Below, in pieces: positions 11,266 to 25,045 of a stretch of DNA of 39,517 bases (position 1 is the first letter of the stretch; every line of letters begins with the position of its first letter). Source of the DNA: an uncultured Bdellovibrionales bacterium (GTDB taxonomy: Bacteria > Patescibacteriota > Minisyncoccia > Moranbacterales > UBA1568). The stretch spans positions 33,812-73,328 of the forward strand of contig CAZCQJ010000003.1 in assembly GCA_964500865.1 (NCBI GenBank), written 5' to 3'. The position numbers and the translations under genes were made by a program. Below the pieces are notes generated by a model. That model was not told the DNA's origin. It saw only the letters and a program-made list of their open reading frames with translations, and did not search any database.

Positions 11266-11601
11266 TTAGAAATCTTCCCGCAGGAGAATTTTCTCTACTT
11301 CGTCGGCGCGGCCCTCGGTGTCGTCCAAAGCAAAACGTAGACGTGGCATAGGGTTCATGTACAGGCGTGAGTGAACACTGTGCTGAATTTTCCCAGCCTC
11401 GTTCTTAAGAGCTGTCATCACATAACGGCTTTCTGTTTCCGGAAAAACACTCACCGCGATACGAGCATGGCGTAAATCTTTAGAAGTTACTACCTTAGCA
11501 ATGGTAATCACTACACCTTTTTTTAAAGAAAGTTCGGTCGTAAAAGCGCTCGCAACGAGGTCGCGGAGCAGGTCATTTACTTTTGTGATGCGTTCAGACA
11601 T
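11266..11601 (-). CDS. rbfA: Ribosome-binding factor A
   Basis: MSERITKVNDLLRDLVA.....ITIAKVVTSKDLRHARIAVSV......L......IQH.V.SRL.M...P.L.F..D is canonical RbfA. Start set to the ATG at 11601. Confidence 0.9.
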   Translation of the reverse strand: MSERITKVNDLLRDLVASAFTTELSLKKGVVITIAKVVTSKDLRHARIAVSVFPETESRYVMTALKNEAGKIQHSVHSRLYMNPMPRLRFALDDTEGRADEVEKILLREDF

Positions 11602-11733
11602 AGTGTTATTCTTAAGAGCAGGAGAAGAGTTAGAATAACAGAAGAATCGTTTTTTGGCAAGGGTCTCGCTAGTATTCCGAGAGAATGACCAGTCACTCAA
11701 AGACTACCGTGCGCACTCTACGAGGAATTCCTG

Positions 11734-11805
11734 TCTCCCTGGCAGGAGTCGAACCTACATCTAGACGTTAGGAGTGTCTTGTTCTATCCATTGAACTACG
11801 GGGAG
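11734..11805 (-). tRNA. tRNA-Arg(CCU)
   Basis: Reverse complement folds: D-arm GTTC/GAAC, loop CTCCTAA, T-arm GTAGG-TTCGACT-CCTGC. One C-A acceptor mismatch and one A-C anticodon-stem mismatch. Confidence 0.7.
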
Positions 11806-11886
11806 ATTGTATCTAAGAAGGCTTTTTGTGTACAAACCCTGTATAAACGCTGATTTTCTGTCTTATACAGGAGTTTTCCACAACTG

Positions 11887-11959
11887 TGGACCCTAGCGGA
11901 CTCGAACCGCTCACCTCTCCCATGCCATGGGAGCGCTCTACCAGATGAGCTAAGGGCCC
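11887..11959 (-). tRNA. tRNA-Ala(GGC)
   Basis: Reverse complement GGGCCCTTAGCTCATCTGGTAGAGCGCTCCCATGGCATGGGAGAGGTGAGCGGTTCGAGTCCGCTAGGGTCCA. G3-U70 identity pair, loop ATGGCAT. Confidence 0.9.
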
Positions 11960-12175: not shown

Positions 12176-12325
12176 AGTGTTATACACCGATTTACACACT
12201 TTTTTTGTTCTCGTTGCCTATATTTTTGTGCAACCCAGAAACATATTCTCTAAACAACGCTTCTGTAAGCGCCACTGTATTGTATCAGATATTCCCAAAA
12301 AACGGTATACTATACACAGATACCT

Positions 12326-13960
12326 ATGCAAAAGACTCTCCTGGCCGCCATTCTATTTACACTCCCCTTTTCCCTACGAAAAGTACTTTTTGTGACGAAT
12401 CCACTAGCCCCGGGAGTATTCAACGAATACATGGACACCAGTGTTTTTCTTTTCGATATCCTTATTTTCCTTTTTGTTACTTATATTATATTAGAACATA
12501 TTTTGATATACAAGTCAAGTTCATGGGGATGGGTACGTGGAATGTTCCACGTGGAACAATTCTCCCCTACACAAAAAATGTTCCACGTGGAACATTTTTT
12601 TATCGCTTTGATTCTAGGTCTCAGCACTATTCTTTCCGTGATTCTTTTTGGGAGCTTTTTTCAATTATTTATTCTCGCAAAAATAGTACTCTACGGGATC
12701 TTCTTTCTCTTTGTTTACAATATCCTATTCTCGGATGTTCCACGTGGAACATTTATACACAAAAATACAGTCCAGAATGTTCCACGTGGAACATTCTTTC
12801 GTTATTCCAGTAACTATATTTGTTCCACGTGGAACAAATTAATCAAATCTACGTCAACAAACTGTTCCACGTGGAACATTTTACAGATCATTCTTTTCAT
12901 CAGTACTATTTCTCAAATACTGCTTGGTATTATACAATTACTCCTTCAGAGATCCATTGGTCTGCGCTGGCTCGGTGAACAAGTTCTTAACGTCAATATT
13001 CCTGGAGTTTCAACTATTATTATTAACAAGGTTGAATTCTTACGAGCCTATGGCACCTTTCTGAATCCAAATATCTAGGCAGGATACCTTATATCTAGCC
13101 TATTACTATTCTTTTTACTTAAAAAATGTTCCACGTGGAACAATGGAGATCCTTTTTCCACAATAAATGTTCCACGTGGAACATTTATACACGAGAATAC
13201 AACTGAAGATGTTCCACGTGGAACAATGGAGACTCTTTTTATTGGTATTATTGGTATCGGTATTATTATCTCTTTCTCTAAGGTGGCCTGGCTTGTTTAT
13301 GGATTGTTTCTTATTGAACATTTTTGGAATGTTCCACGTGGAACATTCTTTTCAAAACTAAATACTAACATTGTTCCACGTGGAACAATTCTTAAAAAAG
13401 TCACTGACTTTTGTTCCACGTGGAACACTCGTAAAATATTGCTCAAAAAATGTTCCACGTGGAACATTTTGATATTTTCTCTCATTATTCTTGGGGGAGT
13501 ATTCTTCCTTTCTCAAATAGACTTCTACTATTATATAGTACAACCTATATTAGAACGTAAATTACAGTATTTGTCAATACTTAGTATACCGAGTCTACAT
13601 ATATGGCTTGGCTCTGGCTTTGGAGGCTACATCTCGTGGCTGAGCACTTCGGGATTAGTAGAGGAGAGCTTCCAGTTACAGCCAGTGCATAATTTCTTCC
13701 TCATGGCCCTCCTTGAAGTCGGTATTCTTCCTATTCTTACCCTTCTGTTCTTTTTTTGGCAGGGGATACGCCGGTTTTTGAAAAACACTCTCACTATCGC
13801 AAAGGAGGCTGGAGTACAGTCTTTAATCTTTGGTGTAGTTCTTCTTGGCTCCTTTGATCACTATTTTTGGGATATTGAAGCAACCCAAATTATCCTTGGG
13901 TTTATACTCGTGATTTTTGTAGGTATCTCTAAAAAAACGTTGTACAAAAATAGTCAGTAG
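12326..13960 (+). pseudogene. Wzy/O-antigen-ligase-like membrane protein. One 545-codon frame with four palindrome-array insertions and one in-frame TAG (13076-13078)
   Basis: ORFs 12326..13078 and 13226..13960 share a frame, and I translated 13079-13225 without a stop. Wzy_C-like segments: RAYGTFLNPNI*AGYL, SFSKVAWLVYG, GSGFGGY, PVHNFFLMALLEVGI, which parallel the paralog at 17244..18497. Confidence 0.65.
12543..13466. repeat. 13 identical copies of the 16-bp palindrome TGTTCCACGTGGAACA (parS-like) in 4 clusters
   Basis: 16-mer starts: 12543, 12579 | 12736, 12778, 12821, 12863 | 13127, 13168, 13210 | 13330, 13372, 13412, 13451. Within-cluster spacings are 36; 42, 43, 42; 41, 42; 42, 40, 39. 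No other copy in the window. It differs at one base from B. subtilis parS, TGTTCCACGTGAAACA. Confidence 0.9.
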
Positions 13961-13981: not shown

Positions 13982-14950
13982 ATGATGAAAGAGAAAAAAA
14001 TTTCCCTCGTTTTGTATATAGTGTTAGTAATTGGTACTTTTTTTGTTTGGTCTTCCTTCCAAACTGTTCGTGGTGAAAGTATTTTTACCGATAGCGATCA
14101 AGATGGTCTTTCAAACGAAGAGGAGCGCCTCTATAAAACAGACCCTCAGAAGAGAGACTCCGATGGTGACAGCTACTCGGACGGTGTAGAAATAAAGAGT
14201 GGCTACGACCCACTCAAGCCAGCGCCTGGCGATAAGATCTTTATAGCTGCCGCTGACATAAGTCGAGCAGGGGAACAAGCGGTAGCAGGGGATAAAGAAA
14301 ACCTCACAAAAGCACTCTCTCAAGAAATTGCTTCCGTAATCACTGAGAAAGGCGCTTCTGGTGAAGATGTTTCGGTAACAGACCTTGATGTCCGTATCCA
14401 AGAACTTCTCAGTGGAAAGGGCTCTGAGGTAGTGCTTCCTCCGATTGACGTAAAAGGACTTCGCATTAAAAACCCAATCTCAAAAGATCTTTCGGATGAA
14501 GAAAAGAAAGTGAAGGAGAAGGAGCAAGCTGTAAAGTACTTGACATCCATGGCCTATATTTTTGCCAATAACTCTCCTCAAAAATTCTCATCAGAAACCG
14601 AACTTGGAACATCACTCGACACACTCTCTACTCAGGTGATGGGAGCCTTCTCTTCTGGGAATAGCGAAATGATCCACGTGCTTGCCGAAAATGGACGCCG
14701 CACCATAGAAGAAACCCGTGACGTAGAGGTTCCAGAGAGCATGCTACCCTTACACATCAAGGCGCTCCAACTTTCTCAGTACGCCATATCTTTAGAGGAT
14801 GAAGTAAAAACAAATACTGGCGATCCACTGCGTGACATTTCATCTATGATGAAAGTTCAGAGTCTCCTTGCTGCAAGTGCCAGTTATATAGCTGAGCTTC
14901 AACAAAAAATGCAGGAGTACGGTATTACTGACTTGCCTGTTTCTCTCTAA
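13982..14950 (+). CDS. Membrane-anchored/secreted protein with thrombospondin-type-3-like Ca-binding repeats
   Basis: N-terminal TM helix, then DSDQDGLSNEEE..DP.KRDSDGDSYSDGVE. Confidence 0.6.
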   Translation: MMKEKKISLVLYIVLVIGTFFVWSSFQTVRGESIFTDSDQDGLSNEEERLYKTDPQKRDSDGDSYSDGVEIKSGYDPLKPAPGDKIFIAAADISRAGEQAVAGDKENLTKALSQEIASVITEKGASGEDVSVTDLDVRIQELLSGKGSEVVLPPIDVKGLRIKNPISKDLSDEEKKVKEKEQAVKYLTSMAYIFANNSPQKFSSETELGTSLDTLSTQVMGAFSSGNSEMIHVLAENGRRTIEETRDVEVPESMLPLHIKALQLSQYAISLEDEVKTNTGDPLRDISSMMKVQSLLAASASYIAELQQKMQEYGITDLPVSL

Positions 14951-14954
14951 GTTT

Positions 14955-16001
14955 ATGCAAAAACAAAATATCATTCGAAACATCCTTCTTACCATAACCC
15001 TCTTTTGTTTTTCGGCATCACCCGCTTTAGCTTGGGGAGATGGTATTCCGGGCGCACTGGTAAACCAGAGCATTCAGAGGATTCGAGAGGGAATCACCGG
15101 AACCATTCTTGGGGCTGTCAAAGCTGCTGCGGTATCTTCCATTATTAATCAGGTAGACCGACTGGTCGGTGGCGTTGGTGGCACTTCTCCGCGCATGATC
15201 CGTAGCTACGATGACTTTCTTCGTCAAAAACCAACTCTTGAAGCACAGACATACGTGTACAACTTTTTAACAAAGGCCTACCGCGGAAAGAGCTCGACAA
15301 CAAACTACGTCTCTGCGAATGGTGACGCGAGCGCCATACGTGGCAACAACGCAACCCTCCTACAAAATGCTGCTTTAAAGAGCGTCCAGAAAAGACCCTA
15401 CCAGTATGACCTCGATCAGTACTGTAAGAATGCTGATAAAGCATTTGCCGAGGATGACTGGCGATGCATGGATGCCATGTTCTCGAATCCTGCAAACAAT
15501 GTATACGGGGCCTCGCTTCGAGCGGAGGCAGAATATATGGCCATGCGTGATGAAATCCGTTACCAAAGACAGATCCTCGCAACCTCTTCTGGATTCCTCC
15601 CAAGTGTTGATGCGCGCGGTAACGTAGTGGCTCCCTCAAGTTCTATCGGGGCCTTATTTAACGATGCGAATACTCTTGCAAGCAAGATTATTACAAATGC
15701 CAAGAACCCGGAAGAGCTTGTAAGTGGTGTTGTCTTTGCTCTCGTGAATCGCTCTATTAATACAATTGCCTATAAGGCTGCCGGCGCTGTCGAAAATGTA
15801 GTCGACAAAACAGTTGGTAAGGCGGTAACCGAAATTAACCGTCTGGCTGGTGACGTTGGTAATACTATCCGTACTGTGGATGGTTATATTCTTACTGCTG
15901 ATGGCTACATTACCGAGGCCGGCTATCAGAAAGAACAGCTCAATGCTCTAAGGCAGAACGCCAATACTTCAACTACGCCGCCGCCCGCAGCAAAACAATA
16001 G
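14955..16001 (+). CDS. Secreted hypothetical protein
   Basis: Signal peptide LLTITLFCFSASPALA. No motif recognised. Starts 5 nt after the upstream gene. Confidence 0.55.
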   Translation: MQKQNIIRNILLTITLFCFSASPALAWGDGIPGALVNQSIQRIREGITGTILGAVKAAAVSSIINQVDRLVGGVGGTSPRMIRSYDDFLRQKPTLEAQTYVYNFLTKAYRGKSSTTNYVSANGDASAIRGNNATLLQNAALKSVQKRPYQYDLDQYCKNADKAFAEDDWRCMDAMFSNPANNVYGASLRAEAEYMAMRDEIRYQRQILATSSGFLPSVDARGNVVAPSSSIGALFNDANTLASKIITNAKNPEELVSGVVFALVNRSINTIAYKAAGAVENVVDKTVGKAVTEINRLAGDVGNTIRTVDGYILTADGYITEAGYQKEQLNALRQNANTSTTPPPAAKQ

Positions 16002-16084: not shown

Positions 16085-17365
16085 TTACTCCTCTTTTTTT
16101 AAAGGGTGCAACAAAAGGAATAAGGGGAGAAAATAGACCAATGCAAGGGCGTTCCCAAAAAGAGGAGTGTCGAAGATTCCGTAAGAAAATATCCCTACAA
16201 ATATTCCAGCCAGAACCTTTTCTTCTTCGGAAATATCTCTCCTCTCTAAAGAACGTATCGCTTGAATCCAGAAAAAAAGCATGCTTAACAAACCAAAGAG
16301 CCCTCCCTGGAGCCACAGTGCCAGCACTAAGTTATGCGGCTGAGGCACTGCCCATTCAAGATATGGCGGAAAAAGCGGTTGTAGATAAAGGTATTCTTGC
16401 TGAAAATTTCCCAGACCGATACCTATCACCGGATGTTCTACAATAAGTACTCCGGCACTGCGCCAAATCATCATACGCGAAGCAAATGATGAGCGAGCAT
16501 CTGTCTCTGTAAGAGTAACGAGCTTTTCCTGAAACGTAGCAAACATAAGGATCGCTACAATAAGCATACTCACAAGCAGTCCCCTTGGAGCTCTACATAC
16601 ATTCCCTAACTGGCGAATCCCCAAAAAGCTATACGTAAGAATACTTGCCAAAACAGCCGCAGAGCTCCCAGCAGAGCGTGTTAAAAAAATACCCATTGCT
16701 ACACTCAGAATCAGCGCGACAGCAGTTTGTCGTATCCAGAAAGTCGGGCGTGTTTTAAACATCCACAAGGAAAGCAGTACCCCCGGAAAAAGAAAAAAAC
16801 CAAGGAAGTTTGGGCTCGTAAATACGCCCTCAAGACGACCATCGAAAGTACGTATCCCCAGCACGAGTGCAGGGAGAGTTGCAAGCAAAACGCCGACAAT
16901 GCCCATTATCCAAATAACAAGCGCCTTTTTGTTTCGGCTACTGTCCGTCTGATATGCTACCGCAAAAAGAAGTGTGGCCACCATTGGAAGAATAATCCAT
17001 GATTTTAACAATCCCCAGGCAGTTGCCGACGGAGAAAAAAGTATTCCCAAAAGGGTGCTTAAAATAAAAAGGGCTACTCCTATAGCTACACTCCTCCTGT
17101 ATTCTTTTTGAATTATCCGATGACGACATACTAAGATGTACCCACTCAGTACAAGAAAAACACTATCCAATAGGTACACGGGGAGCGCCGGAAAAACACG
17201 ATTATTCGCAAGAGGAATAAGTAAAAATGCAATGAGCAAAAAACTATACGGTGTCTTGAGGAGTTGATTCCACATAAAGCAGGGCAAGAAGGGCCAGAAA
17301 AAGCGGAGTGATATGAACAGAGAAGAGGGGATTTTCAAAAAGTGACTGTGCAAAAAATAGTACAA
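16085..17365 (-). CDS. O-antigen ligase (Wzy_C) family membrane protein
   Basis: Polytopic membrane protein. LTRSAGSSAAVLASI, GIGLGNF and PHNLVLALWLQGG are Wzy_C-like. The start could be the internal Met at 17275. Confidence 0.7.
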   Translation of the reverse strand: MYYFLHSHFLKIPSSLFISLRFFWPFLPCFMWNQLLKTPYSFLLIAFLLIPLANNRVFPALPVYLLDSVFLVLSGYILVCRHRIIQKEYRRSVAIGVALFILSTLLGILFSPSATAWGLLKSWIILPMVATLLFAVAYQTDSSRNKKALVIWIMGIVGVLLATLPALVLGIRTFDGRLEGVFTSPNFLGFFLFPGVLLSLWMFKTRPTFWIRQTAVALILSVAMGIFLTRSAGSSAAVLASILTYSFLGIRQLGNVCRAPRGLLVSMLIVAILMFATFQEKLVTLTETDARSSFASRMMIWRSAGVLIVEHPVIGIGLGNFQQEYLYLQPLFPPYLEWAVPQPHNLVLALWLQGGLFGLLSMLFFWIQAIRSLERRDISEEEKVLAGIFVGIFSYGIFDTPLFGNALALVYFLPLFLLLHPLKKEE

Positions 17366-18497
17366 GACTTACCATAACCCAAGTACTAGAAGCTACTGGT
17401 AGTGTAGCAGACTTTTGGCGCTGCGCGAACACGGCTACAAGTAGACCGAGGAAAAGTATCAGTCCCACAAACCCGATTTCCACGGCAATATCAAAATACA
17501 TATTGTGCACATAGATTGGTTCTCGGAATTCGGCCGTCGGCTTTACAAGAAGCGGATAACTTCCCAAGCCAACGCCGGCGAATGGCATTACTTGAATATT
17601 TACTACTGCCTCCCGCAAAAGCCTCACTCGCTCACTCACTGATCCATCTTCTAACGAAAAGCTTGAAGCAAAGCGGCTCGCCACAGGGCTAAACATAAAT
17701 ACACTTACACCAAGAACAACAAATCCTGTACGGAGCGGTGTGACGTAACGAGTCAACAGGGAACGACTCTGCCACATGGCGTATACAGTTGCTATAATCA
17801 GACCAACGTAACCTGAGCGAGAGAAAGAAAGACCGAGCGCAGCAAACATCATGCTGCCAAACAACACCCTTTTCCAGAGCGCAAAACGACGACTCTGCCA
17901 CAAGACCAATGGCAACAACATGCCGACAAAATAGGCAAAAATATGCGGGTCAGGAAAAAATGCCGAGGCTCGTAGTAGAGTCACTCCGTGAATATTTACC
18001 AAAAGACTTGGGTACTCCGCGAGAGTGTTCCCGAGACCACCCCCAACAAAAAAGGCGAGTGTATCTACCCAGAAATGGAAAAGTTGACCGACAGGCAATA
18101 CTAATTGTAGCGAAAATTGAAAAAGCCCTATACCTGCTGCCAGTAGACCTGCAAAAAAAAGTGAGCGATACAGTATCAGACGTAGATATTGCTCACGAAA
18201 GACATCAACAAAAACTAAAAAAAGTGGGAAGATATTCCACCAAAAGGCTACCTTGCGTATGGCCCACATGGGATTTAGTGCCCAAAACACAGAAAGTGTC
18301 GCCCACAGTAAAAAGGCTGACCAAAAGAAGAGGACGGTTGGCTGTGGCAAAAAGAAGCGTCTCTGAATGAGATTTTTGGCCAACCAAAAAAGAATCCATG
18401 CCAATGCCAGTATACGTACCATGGGCACCCCCCAAAGGGCAAACCACACTGGCAGTAGAGCAAAGAAAAAAACTACGAACCACTTATGAACGACCAT
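17244..18497 (-). CDS. O-antigen ligase (Wzy_C) family membrane protein
   Basis: SFSRSGYVGLI, GVGLGSY, VHNMYFDIAVEIGF. Start set to ATG 18497 (MVVHKW). The track's longer N-terminus overlaps the GT2 gene. Confidence 0.75.
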   Translation of the reverse strand: MVVHKWFVVFFFALLPVWFALWGVPMVRILALAWILFWLAKNLIQRRFFLPQPTVLFFWSAFLLWATLSVFWALNPMWAIRKVAFWWNIFPLFLVFVDVFREQYLRLILYRSLFFAGLLAAGIGLFQFSLQLVLPVGQLFHFWVDTLAFFVGGGLGNTLAEYPSLLVNIHGVTLLRASAFFPDPHIFAYFVGMLLPLVLWQSRRFALWKRVLFGSMMFAALGLSFSRSGYVGLIIATVYAMWQSRSLLTRYVTPLRTGFVVLGVSVFMFSPVASRFASSFSLEDGSVSERVRLLREAVVNIQVMPFAGVGLGSYPLLVKPTAEFREPIYVHNMYFDIAVEIGFVGLILFLGLLVAVFAQRQKSATLPVASSTWVMVSLVLFFAQSLFENPLFSVHITPLFLALLALLYVESTPQDTV

Positions 18498-23593: not shown

Positions 23594-25045
23594 ATGGACA
23601 AAGAAACTCTCTGGAAATCAGCCTTGGCTCATATTGAACTTTCAATTTCGAAAGCTAATTTTGTGACCTGGTTTAAAAATACCAGTATCTTTGAACATAC
23701 GGACAACGAAGTGAGTATTACTGTCCCTAACGGGTTTGCTAAGGAATGGCTCGAAAATAAGTATAATCACTACATTCTCCAGGCCCTCCAGTCAGTAGAC
23801 CCCTCTGTTACTCGTATTCGCTGCGTTATCAACCCAAGCCCAAACACAGCGCCCAAACTCGATTCTGTCCAGGTAGCTCCCGCACAACAGCAGACACAGA
23901 CATTTCCCGGTGCGCCATTTCAGGGCACAAAAACGGTTGACTTTACACGAAAAAAGATTATCGAGCAGCCAAATTTTCGCCAAGAAGCTGCCCCAGCAAC
24001 CGCTGTTTTTCACCAAAGCAACCTTAATAACCGCTATCATTTCGAGAATTTTATCGTAGCAGAGAACAACGAACTCGCTCGAGCCGCCTGCATGGCCGTA
24101 GCTGATAACCTTGGTGGCGCCTATAATCCACTCTTTATTTACGGGGGCGTCGGTCTCGGAAAAACTCACCTTTTGCAGTCCATTGGGAACAGTGTCGCCA
24201 AAAAACACCCCGAAAAACGCATTAAGTACATTTCTTCCGAAAAATTTACTCGCGAGCTTGTCGAAAGCATCAAAAACCAGAAGATTGATCAATTTAAAGA
24301 CTACTATGAGCAGATGGATCTGCTTATTATTGATGATATTCAATTTCTTTCGGGCCGCGAAAAGACTCAGAACGAATTTTTTCAGATCTTTAACACCCTC
24401 TACCAGATTAACAAGCAAATCGTTATTTCGAGCGACCGCCCACCAAAGGCGATCCCTACCCTCGAAGAACGGCTCCGTTCCCGCTTTGAAGGGGGTATGA
24501 TTACCGACATTAGCCGCCCCTCCCTGGAGACCCGCCTCGCCATATTAGAATCTAAAGTGCTCGAGCGTGGCCTTATAATCGACAAAGATGCTCTTTTTTA
24601 TATCGCTGACAACGTTTCTCAGAATATCCGCGAACTCGAAGGCGCCCTAAATCGCGTTATCGCTTACAGTGAGTTTCAGAAAATTCCTGCCAACCTCGAA
24701 AATACCACAAAAATCCTTGACCAACTCCTTGAGAGTAACAAAAAGACTGTTTCGATCGACGATGTATTCTCACATATTTGCGATCGTTTCCAAATTTCCC
24801 GAGAAGATCTTATTAAAAAGGGACGAAAAAAAGAAGTTGTGTACCCTCGCCAGATTATGATGTATCTTCTTCGCACCGAACTCCAGAATTCATTCTCGTC
24901 CATTGGTGAGGTTTTTAATGGGCGTGACCACACTACTGTCCTTCATGCTGTCGAAAAAATTGAACGGGAAAAGGGAACAAATGAAAAAATAAAGGCTGAT
25001 ATTCTTCACCTTAAAGAGGTTCTCTACTACACTCCACCTGAATAA
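23594..25045 (+). CDS. dnaA: Chromosomal replication initiator DnaA
   Basis: Walker A GGVGLGKTHL, Walker B LLIIDDIQF, sensor and DnaA signature, C-terminal DNA-binding domain (RDHTTVLHA). Confidence 0.97.
   Translation: MDKETLWKSALAHIELSISKANFVTWFKNTSIFEHTDNEVSITVPNGFAKEWLENKYNHYILQALQSVDPSVTRIRCVINPSPNTAPKLDSVQVAPAQQQTQTFPGAPFQGTKTVDFTRKKIIEQPNFRQEAAPATAVFHQSNLNNRYHFENFIVAENNELARAACMAVADNLGGAYNPLFIYGGVGLGKTHLLQSIGNSVAKKHPEKRIKYISSEKFTRELVESIKNQKIDQFKDYYEQMDLLIIDDIQFLSGREKTQNEFFQIFNTLYQINKQIVISSDRPPKAIPTLEERLRSRFEGGMITDISRPSLETRLAILESKVLERGLIIDKDALFYIADNVSQNIRELEGALNRVIAYSEFQKIPANLENTTKILDQLLESNKKTVSIDDVFSHICDRFQISREDLIKKGRKKEVVYPRQIMMYLLRTELQNSFSSIGEVFNGRDHTTVLHAVEKIEREKGTNEKIKADILHLKEVLYYTPPE

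Follow-up and report, generated by a model that had tools for sequence, protein, structure and literature searches.

parS palindromes in frame within a Wzy_C-like membrane-protein gene: a probable chromosomal centromere in coding sequence of a Patescibacteria genome

How can a protein-coding gene hold four dense arrays of one DNA palindrome and still keep its reading frame, and what are these palindromes? The locus that raises the question lies in a stretch of 39,517 nucleotides (the window) from one contig of an uncultured member of the Patescibacteria (GenBank assembly GCA_964500865.1). There, positions 12326..13960 of the forward strand translate as a single frame of 545 codons, terminal TAG included, and the only stop codon within it is a TAG at 13076-13078, as an initial annotation of the sequence had already read it. 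Translation, collinearity with orthologs and an AlphaFold2 (AF2) model lead us to describe the frame as a Wzy_C-like gene for a polytopic membrane protein with parS arrays. The answer that we consider very probable is that the palindromes are the sole centromere of the chromosome, a set of parS sites carried in frame in the loops of a membrane protein, so that the same DNA is both centromere and coding sequence.

The palindromes and their identity

The 14-mer GTTCCACGTGGAAC occurs in 13 exact copies at 12544..13465, where shuffled sequences predict 0.15. Every copy is preceded by T and followed by A, and the repeat unit is therefore the 16-mer TGTTCCACGTGGAACA. The copies fall into groups of two, four, three and four sites, in agreement with the four arrays first described: array 1 at 12543..12594, array 2 at 12736..12878, array 3 at 13127..13225 and array 4 at 13330..13466. 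They are the only copies in the assembly of 759,934 bases (about 760 kb), and a search of the whole assembly returned no further 16-mer within two mismatches of TGTTCCACGTGGAACA, of the Bacillus subtilis form or of the canonical TGTTTCACGTGAAACA.

This 16-mer is base-for-base identical to the experimentally studied parS2 and parS3 sites of Pseudomonas aeruginosa (PMC4368675, Table 1). It is also a listed site of P. putida, and it matches the consensus of Myxococcus xanthus in 15 of 16 bases (PMC7022226). All 13 sites fit the parS consensus TGTTNCACGTGNAACA, a 16-bp palindrome. The proteins that would act on them are encoded in the same genome as an adjacent parA-parB pair on another contig (C7): ParB scores 110.7 bits for ParB_N and 182.7 bits for TIGR00180 (cut-off 58.45) and contains the GERRFQA box, and its neighbor ParA is a Walker-type protein with the motif KGGVGKTT. 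The position of the sites on the chromosome is that of a centromere as well. dnaA, recognized by a match to the Bac_DnaA domain at 24023..24508 of the forward strand (contig C3:57834-58319), marks the replication origin region, and the cumulative GC-skew minimum falls at 24-25 kb of the window; with the parS sites at 12.5-13.5 kb, this places them about 11 kb (11-12 kb) from the likely origin.

The same 14-mer is present in 46 of 61 related genomes and in 12 families (within the genus, in 32 of 41 genomes), and wherever sites are listed the copies are clustered within a single locus of about 1 kb. On the basis of their sequence we identify all 13 palindromes as parS sites, and the assembly shows no others on the chromosome. 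From what is established for ParABS systems in general, ParB dimers would be expected to bind every 16-mer, to be loaded as CTP-dependent clamps and to assemble a partition complex beside oriC, which ParA would then segregate; all the sites together would form one compact complex. Within the arrays the sites are spaced 36-43 bp apart, mostly 42 bp (about four helical turns), whereas most relatives have spacings of 37 and 49 bp, so that the genus does not share one helical phasing.

Some of the array sequence also scores as terminator-like, in that several parS sites form, with the A/T stretches beside them, stems of 6-10 bp followed by T-rich runs. Eight such structures were found, compared with 2.0 +/- 1.7 in shuffled sequence, and they include 12774-12797 and 13447-13470 as well as, on the minus strand, 13370-13389, 13127-13142 and 12863-12878. 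Attenuation of the host-gene transcript by these stems is possible.

Coding constraint and placement in the protein

Within the frame, the sites use all three phases and are accordingly read as VPRGT, CSTWN or MFHVE. Both sites of array 1 are in phase 2 and read MFHVE (residues 73-90), and the four sites of array 2 are in phases 0, 0, 1 and 1 (VPRGT twice and CSTWN twice; residues 137-185). The three sites of array 3 follow in phases 1, 0 and 0 (residues 267-300), and the four of array 4 again in phases 0, 0, 1 and 1 (residues 335-381). Read directly from the sequence, the core palindrome is free of stop codons in all six frames, as the initial annotation had noted; it had ascribed the three readings in one ORF (open reading frame) to within-cluster spacings that are not all multiples of three. 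The nine spacers within the arrays, 241 bp in total and of 25% G+C, contain no stop in the frame that is used and two to nine in each of the other five. The annotation had expected this to be unlikely by chance, and a permutation test agrees: shuffled spacers hold 5.9 stops on average, and only 0.1-0.2% of shuffles hold none (P = 0.001-0.002; 20,000 trials). The spacers of different arrays resemble each other, and the spurious ORFs that had been ascribed to the arrays are present at 12205..12813 and, on the minus strand, at 13115..13321, 13297..13485 and 13358..13543.

Ribosomes reading through the arrays would produce flexible loop peptides, MFHVE, VPRGT or CSTWN according to phase, with poorly conserved spacers of AT-rich origin between them. 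Predicted tryptic peptides that span the sites include ...NTTEDVPR and CSTWNNGDPFSTINVPR.

The same arrangement is found intact elsewhere, and the host gene would be functional in most relatives. The orthologous gene was fetched from 24 loci, and in each it runs without a stop over its 2-18 sites, in ORFs of 449-719 aa, compared with 10-40 stops in the other frames. Of the eighteen loci with 7-18 sites in one open frame of 472-719 aa, 17 belong to the genus and one to another family; in four further loci, from three more families, open frames of 483-573 aa contain 2-6 exact sites. We consider these genes orthologous on the basis of collinear tblastn matches to the N-terminal, middle and C-terminal parts of the window gene. 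In L044, L049, L055 and L056 the open frame extends upstream over a tRNA gene, giving the tRNA-derived "peptides" GFEPVTS and MPDSNRLP; lengths of 694-719 aa, counted from the first start codon, therefore exceed those of the real proteins.

Two kinds of constraint can be told apart in these orthologs. Their alignment has five fixed array positions with 0-6 sites each, and the window's arrays fill four of these five loop positions. Outside the arrays, the protein core has a ratio of nonsynonymous to synonymous substitution (dN/dS) of 0.11-0.19 between orthologs, compared with roughly 0.6-1 (dN about equal to dS) within the arrays, where the freezing of the sites at every codon position depresses dS. 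The short gaps from one site to the next leave a remainder of 1 on division by three in 146 of 166 cases in coding clusters, as against a distribution of 27/24/14 over the three classes in noncoding ones. As this bias is seen in coding clusters only, spacer length changes by triplets only where the DNA is read.

A further sign of translation comes from two species of the genus that use the canonical TGTTTCACGTGAAACA, which in one phase reads C-F-T-stop (TGA). Their orthologs are intact (664 and 449 aa, with 14 and 8 sites), and none of the 22 sites is in the TGA phase, compared with 66 of 252 sites in that third phase in orthologs with the C/G variant. One of the two species has gaps of 98-101 bp at places that in other orthologs are divided by a third-phase site into two gaps of about 49 bp. 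The C5/G12 variant, which is the one present in the window, has TGG in place of TGA and is stop-free in all frames, so that any phase is allowed. The fixation of the 16-mers at the nucleotide level in any phase would reflect ParB binding, and the stop-free spacers that change in length by triplets only would reflect translation. Arrays would grow and shrink by duplication or deletion of whole site-plus-spacer units, presumably tolerated only in loops.

In loci of other families (L061 and L078-L081), the conserved core position NVSRGT before the G.G.GQ loop (..NVSRGTF..) is encoded by TGTTTCACGTGGAACA, which is the spo0J parS of B. subtilis in reverse complement. A parS with mixed half-sites thus appears to have become fixed within a conserved part of the protein in these families, beyond the variable loops.

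The protein family is best recognized through the orthologs, 15 of 19 of which, as aligned, match PF04932 (Wzy_C) with a best E-value of 2.4e-11. The same match is precomputed for most homologs in databases, and the protein has conserved loop motifs such as RxYG.FPHPN and QP.HN. A first AF2 model from 19 sequences was poor, with a predicted local distance difference test (pLDDT) of 53.7, and an alignment of 125 sequences was therefore needed; the resulting model has a pLDDT of 78.5 and a predicted template modeling score (pTM) of 0.82. A search of PDB sequences with a sequence profile found no match.

In the better model, stretches with pLDDT below 50 and little regular structure lie within residues 65-84, 139-179, 271-293 and 339-376, and coincide with the four arrays. 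For array 1 they cover most of 65-84, with helices 42-72 and 88-108 on either side; for array 2 most of 139-179, between helices 111-136 and 182-207; and for array 4 most of 339-376, between helices 319-334 and 378-397. Array 3 has pLDDT below 50 at 271-274 and 283-293, the blocks of 271-300 average 47-54, and helices 248-267 and 300-316 flank it. Hydropathy agrees with this placement, averaging -0.25 to -0.92 over the arrays compared with +1.12 over the core, and no 15-residue window inside an array exceeds 0.5. Since the arrays occupy alternate inter-helix loops, all of them should face the same side of the membrane. That side may be the cytoplasmic one, which would fit the excess of K+R over D+E (275 to 142) among spacer residues in the orthologs, though AT-rich codons could also explain it.

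For placing the insertions, the initial annotation had pointed to two paralogs in the window, at 16085..17365 and 17244..18497, as insert-free references. These proved unsuitable, as hhalign aligns only 72 C-terminal columns; they are too distant, and orthologs were therefore used instead. With these, the segments that flank the arrays are parts of one gene and not separate genes, the arrays lie outside the helices, and shuffled spacers are only rarely stop-free. The open orthologs, the low dN/dS of the core, the triplet indels and spacing, and the loop placement together uphold the earlier proposal that a DNA-level element has been accommodated as translated loop insertions.

The internal stop codon and repeated loss of the gene

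The sole interruption of the frame in the window deserves separate discussion. The closest relative (L084), known from three JGI metagenome samples (3300045398, 3300045394 and 3300045392), has 87% DNA identity and an intact ORF of 561 codons with the same start codon. At the position of the TAG (13076..13078) this sister lineage has TAC (Tyr), and the wider family has Leu; the change in the window is therefore most likely one of TAC to TAG. The two genes otherwise differ in the manner seen among orthologs. Array 1 has two sites in the window and one in the sister (a 36-bp indel), array 2 four and five (51 bp), and array 3 three and four (42 bp), with the number of sites in array 4 being the same; all three indels are whole units and multiples of three. 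Between window and sister, dN/dS is 0.14 in the core upstream of the TAG, 0.17 in the core downstream and 0.61 in the array spacers, and 4 of 72 parS codons differ. The low ratio on both sides of the TAG indicates purifying selection on the gene until very recently. The TAG is either a fresh nonsense mutation or else a consensus or strain artefact, or a variant of the assembly or the population. An exact look-up of the window's 250-aa fragment found no match, and neither did a metagenome scan with a pattern across the TAG site, in which the window's own records may not have been included.

Whether such a stop could be a step towards loss of the gene can be judged from the rest of the genus, where the surroundings of the cluster are constant. 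All genus loci, with coding or noncoding cluster alike, have the order rbfA, tRNA genes, cluster, TSP3-repeat protein and a protein of about 350 aa. In the window, the left flank is rbfA at 11266..11700 on the minus strand (PF02033, E-value 6.6e-19), which flanks the cluster in nearly all genus loci. Between it and the host gene, ARAGORN predicts tRNA-Arg(CCT) and tRNA-Ala(GGC) at 11733..11959, also on the minus strand, and tRNA-derived translations adjoin the cluster in relatives too. The right flank, conserved in synteny, consists of a TSP3-repeat secreted protein (PF18884) at 13982..14950 and a 348-aa protein at 14955..16001, both on the forward strand.

In ten sampled genomes of the genus, where the cluster keeps this slot, and in several of other families, a cluster of 3-16 sites has no ORF of at least 140 aa over it. 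No remnant of the membrane protein was detectable in these ORF-less clusters, where masked-query tblastn gave only translations of the neighboring tRNA gene; a 288-bp gap that resembles a conserved coding segment of 289 bp was rejected as a remnant, its similarity not being significant (z about 2). A tree built from the three flanking proteins mixes loci with and without the ORF, and its well-supported branches require at least four changes. The simplest reading is that the gene was lost repeatedly while parS was kept, since it is not plausible that a Wzy_C-like ORF should form around arrays already in place. In one genome (G022) the host gene is spread over three overlapping frames by frameshifts, and this locus and that of the window, with its one stop, look like intermediates of gene loss. 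The change from TAC to TAG could accordingly be the first step of a loss seen repeatedly in the genus, if it is not a variant of the assembly or the population.

Genomes with ORF-less clusters have, elsewhere in the genome, a Wzy-like ORF of 482-497 aa that lacks parS sites (L087:851-2344 in G006 and L088:758-2206 in G033). In ORF-bearing genomes its best match is the parS-hosting gene (35-47% identity in the conserved loop), and a comparison of five plus five genomes showed nothing closer there. The distribution over those genomes may be complementary, with the function coming from another locus after loss of the host gene.

These observations bear on the strongest of the alternatives, which is that the host gene is already dead in this genome: the TAG would be real and fixed, no full-length protein would be made, the open frame would be a relic of very recent pseudogenization, and the arrays would be purely noncoding parS. 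An in-frame TAG of the kind that also serves as the gene's own terminator is what this predicts, and the genus supplies both the precedent, in its four or more losses with the parS cluster staying in its slot, and the frameshifted intermediate. Yet the lesion is a single one in 545 codons, dN/dS downstream of it is as low as upstream and the sister lineage is intact, and in a metagenome-assembled genome of 26 contigs a single-base consensus or strain variant is possible. We regard this alternative as a serious one that is nonetheless somewhat improbable. That the TAG is instead recoded or read through, leaving the frame truly uninterrupted, would explain why the frame and the signature of selection persist beyond it, but we think this highly unlikely, as TAG also ends this gene, the sister has an ordinary TAC and the ORF of the relatives is open without recoding.

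Several points count against our preferred reading of the locus as a centromere within coding sequence. As a consequence of the premature TAG, full-length protein may not be made from the window copy, and the ORF-less genomes of the genus keep their parS cluster, which means that coding is not needed for the centromere. The sampled genomes are kin, so that the counts of spacing remainders and phases overstate the number of independent events. The window's own protein, whether tried as two halves, as a read-through product or in array-deleted forms, falls below every Pfam threshold, with no family at E-values up to 1; the "recognizable" O-antigen ligase of the initial annotation is thus recognizable not in this protein but only by way of its Wzy_C-matching orthologs. 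Structure comparison with Foldseek gave no PDB hit below an E-value of 0.1 for the good model (RodA being best, at 0.19), and for the weak model it ranked WaaL (7tpg) first at a non-significant 0.41. Lastly, the organism is uncultivated, and ParB binding, transcription and translation are all read from DNA sequence.

Relation to known centromeres and repeats

The system is like the known chromosomal ParABS systems (P. aeruginosa parS1-4, the 22 sites of M. xanthus, the Spo0J sites of B. subtilis) in the 16-bp sequence, shared with P. aeruginosa parS2/3, in the origin-proximal location of the sites and in having a cognate parAB. It differs in that all sites are packed at 36-43-bp spacing into four loops of one gene (relatives have 2-18 sites), and in that the spacers are translated, the spacing is constrained to triplets and the phase that would give a stop is avoided. 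Single parS sites inside genes are ordinary in the species with known systems. To our knowledge, however, published chromosomal clusters extend over distances from kilobases to tens of kilobases, and none takes the form of in-frame arrays. The parS mutations in Table 1 of PMC4368675 are scattered single-base changes, which we read as an attempt to preserve the overlapping coding sequence.

In density, the arrays are closer to the iteron-type centromeres of plasmids (F sopC, P1 parS and R1 parC), which likewise have about 10 or more sites at about 40-bp spacing and form one compact partition complex. The sopC centromere of F, for example, consists of 12 repeats of 43 bp. Plasmid centromeres are noncoding, plasmid-borne and served by other ParB or ParR types, whereas the arrays described here are chromosomal, translated and divided into four blocks by transmembrane-coding segments. 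Of these plasmid systems, sopC is named in PMC3597684. As to the host protein, the likeness to the Wzy_C or O-antigen ligase-like family (PF04932; WaaL, Wzy) is that of a polytopic helical membrane protein whose orthologs match the family's HMM, the window copy being below threshold.

The initial annotation had compared the arrays to Rickettsia palindromic elements, and the comparison, a superficial one, holds only in so far as a palindrome is translated in frame: in both cases palindromes lie in ORFs, are read through and end up at the surface or in loops of the host protein. Rickettsia palindromic elements are selfish elements of 100-150 bp, found over many genes and with no known host function. 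Here, in contrast, only 16 bp are conserved, all copies are in one gene and the function of the sequence, that of a centromere, is known, so that the analogy does not extend to dispersed selfish repeats. An invasion of the gene by selfish mobile elements of this type, or of the type of miniature inverted-repeat transposable elements, tolerated in frame, would be in keeping with a palindromic, multicopy sequence whose units are gained and lost between close relatives and whose spacers are related between arrays. It is very unlikely given that in the window genome, and in relatives with sites listed, all copies are at one locus and none is dispersed, and given that the only conserved part is the 16-mer, which equals a validated parS and is unchanged over 12 families while its surroundings diverge. 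Least probable of all is selection at the protein level, with MFHVEH, VPRGT and CSTWN as functional loop motifs and the DNA palindrome as a by-product: the peptides do recur in 120 of the 120 best homologs (a candidate set biased by shared words), but the same nucleotides give three unrelated peptides in three phases, synonymous positions within the sites are as frozen as nonsynonymous ones, and the identical DNA motif is kept in noncoding clusters.

Other identities were considered for the repeats and dropped. A CRISPR-like mini-array does not fit a repeat of only 16 bp that is a known parS and is located within an ORF. A shufflon or invertase site was dismissed because there is no recombinase nearby and the order is conserved across species, and translational bypass because the frame is open and bypass is not needed.

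We found no paper on such an arrangement, nor any in which parS arrays are connected with this gene or these bacteria. The components are those of textbook ParABS; what is new is a whole chromosomal centromere in the form of in-frame loop arrays of one gene, with its rules of phase and triplets. Most simply, the association of gene and centromere is historical, an ancestral in-gene parS having been amplified locally where the protein tolerated it. It could also be that the placement is functional, although we think this improbable. Transertion of the membrane protein, in which transcription, translation and membrane insertion of the nascent chain are coupled, might tether the parS/ParB complex, and with it the origin region, to the membrane, replacing dedicated origin anchors that these reduced genomes lack, or ParB loading might determine, once in each cell cycle, how strongly a cell-surface glycan gene is expressed. 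If so, the link between parS and the gene across at least five families would have been selected and not inherited by chance. As ORF-less lineages exist, any such functional coupling is non-essential.

On the reading that centromere and coding sequence coincide, the two would have shared bases over long evolutionary time, with both constraints still readable: in the 16-mers frozen in any phase, in the triplet-only changes of spacers, in the avoidance of the stop phase and in a form of the site that has no stop in any frame. A large uncultivated phylum without known studies of chromosome segregation would also gain a centromere that is compact and defined by its sequence. The same reading would guard against the misreading of these loci by gene callers and annotators as odd "O-antigen ligases" or spurious ORFs. 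The series from intact gene, through one stop or frameshifts, to no gene would be a natural test of how much the coding context matters to the centromere.

One ortholog differs from the others by more than its arrays. That of L048 (G005) has an extra insert of 34 residues, QTKRAKRKFTFVSLPTGRQASRSAGKIGFNTRYK, at about residues 349-379, and the translation of this insert also matches DNA in two ORF-less parS clusters (L076 and L074), with 64% and 53% identity over 30 aa. The shared element is possibly a small RNA or a repeat.

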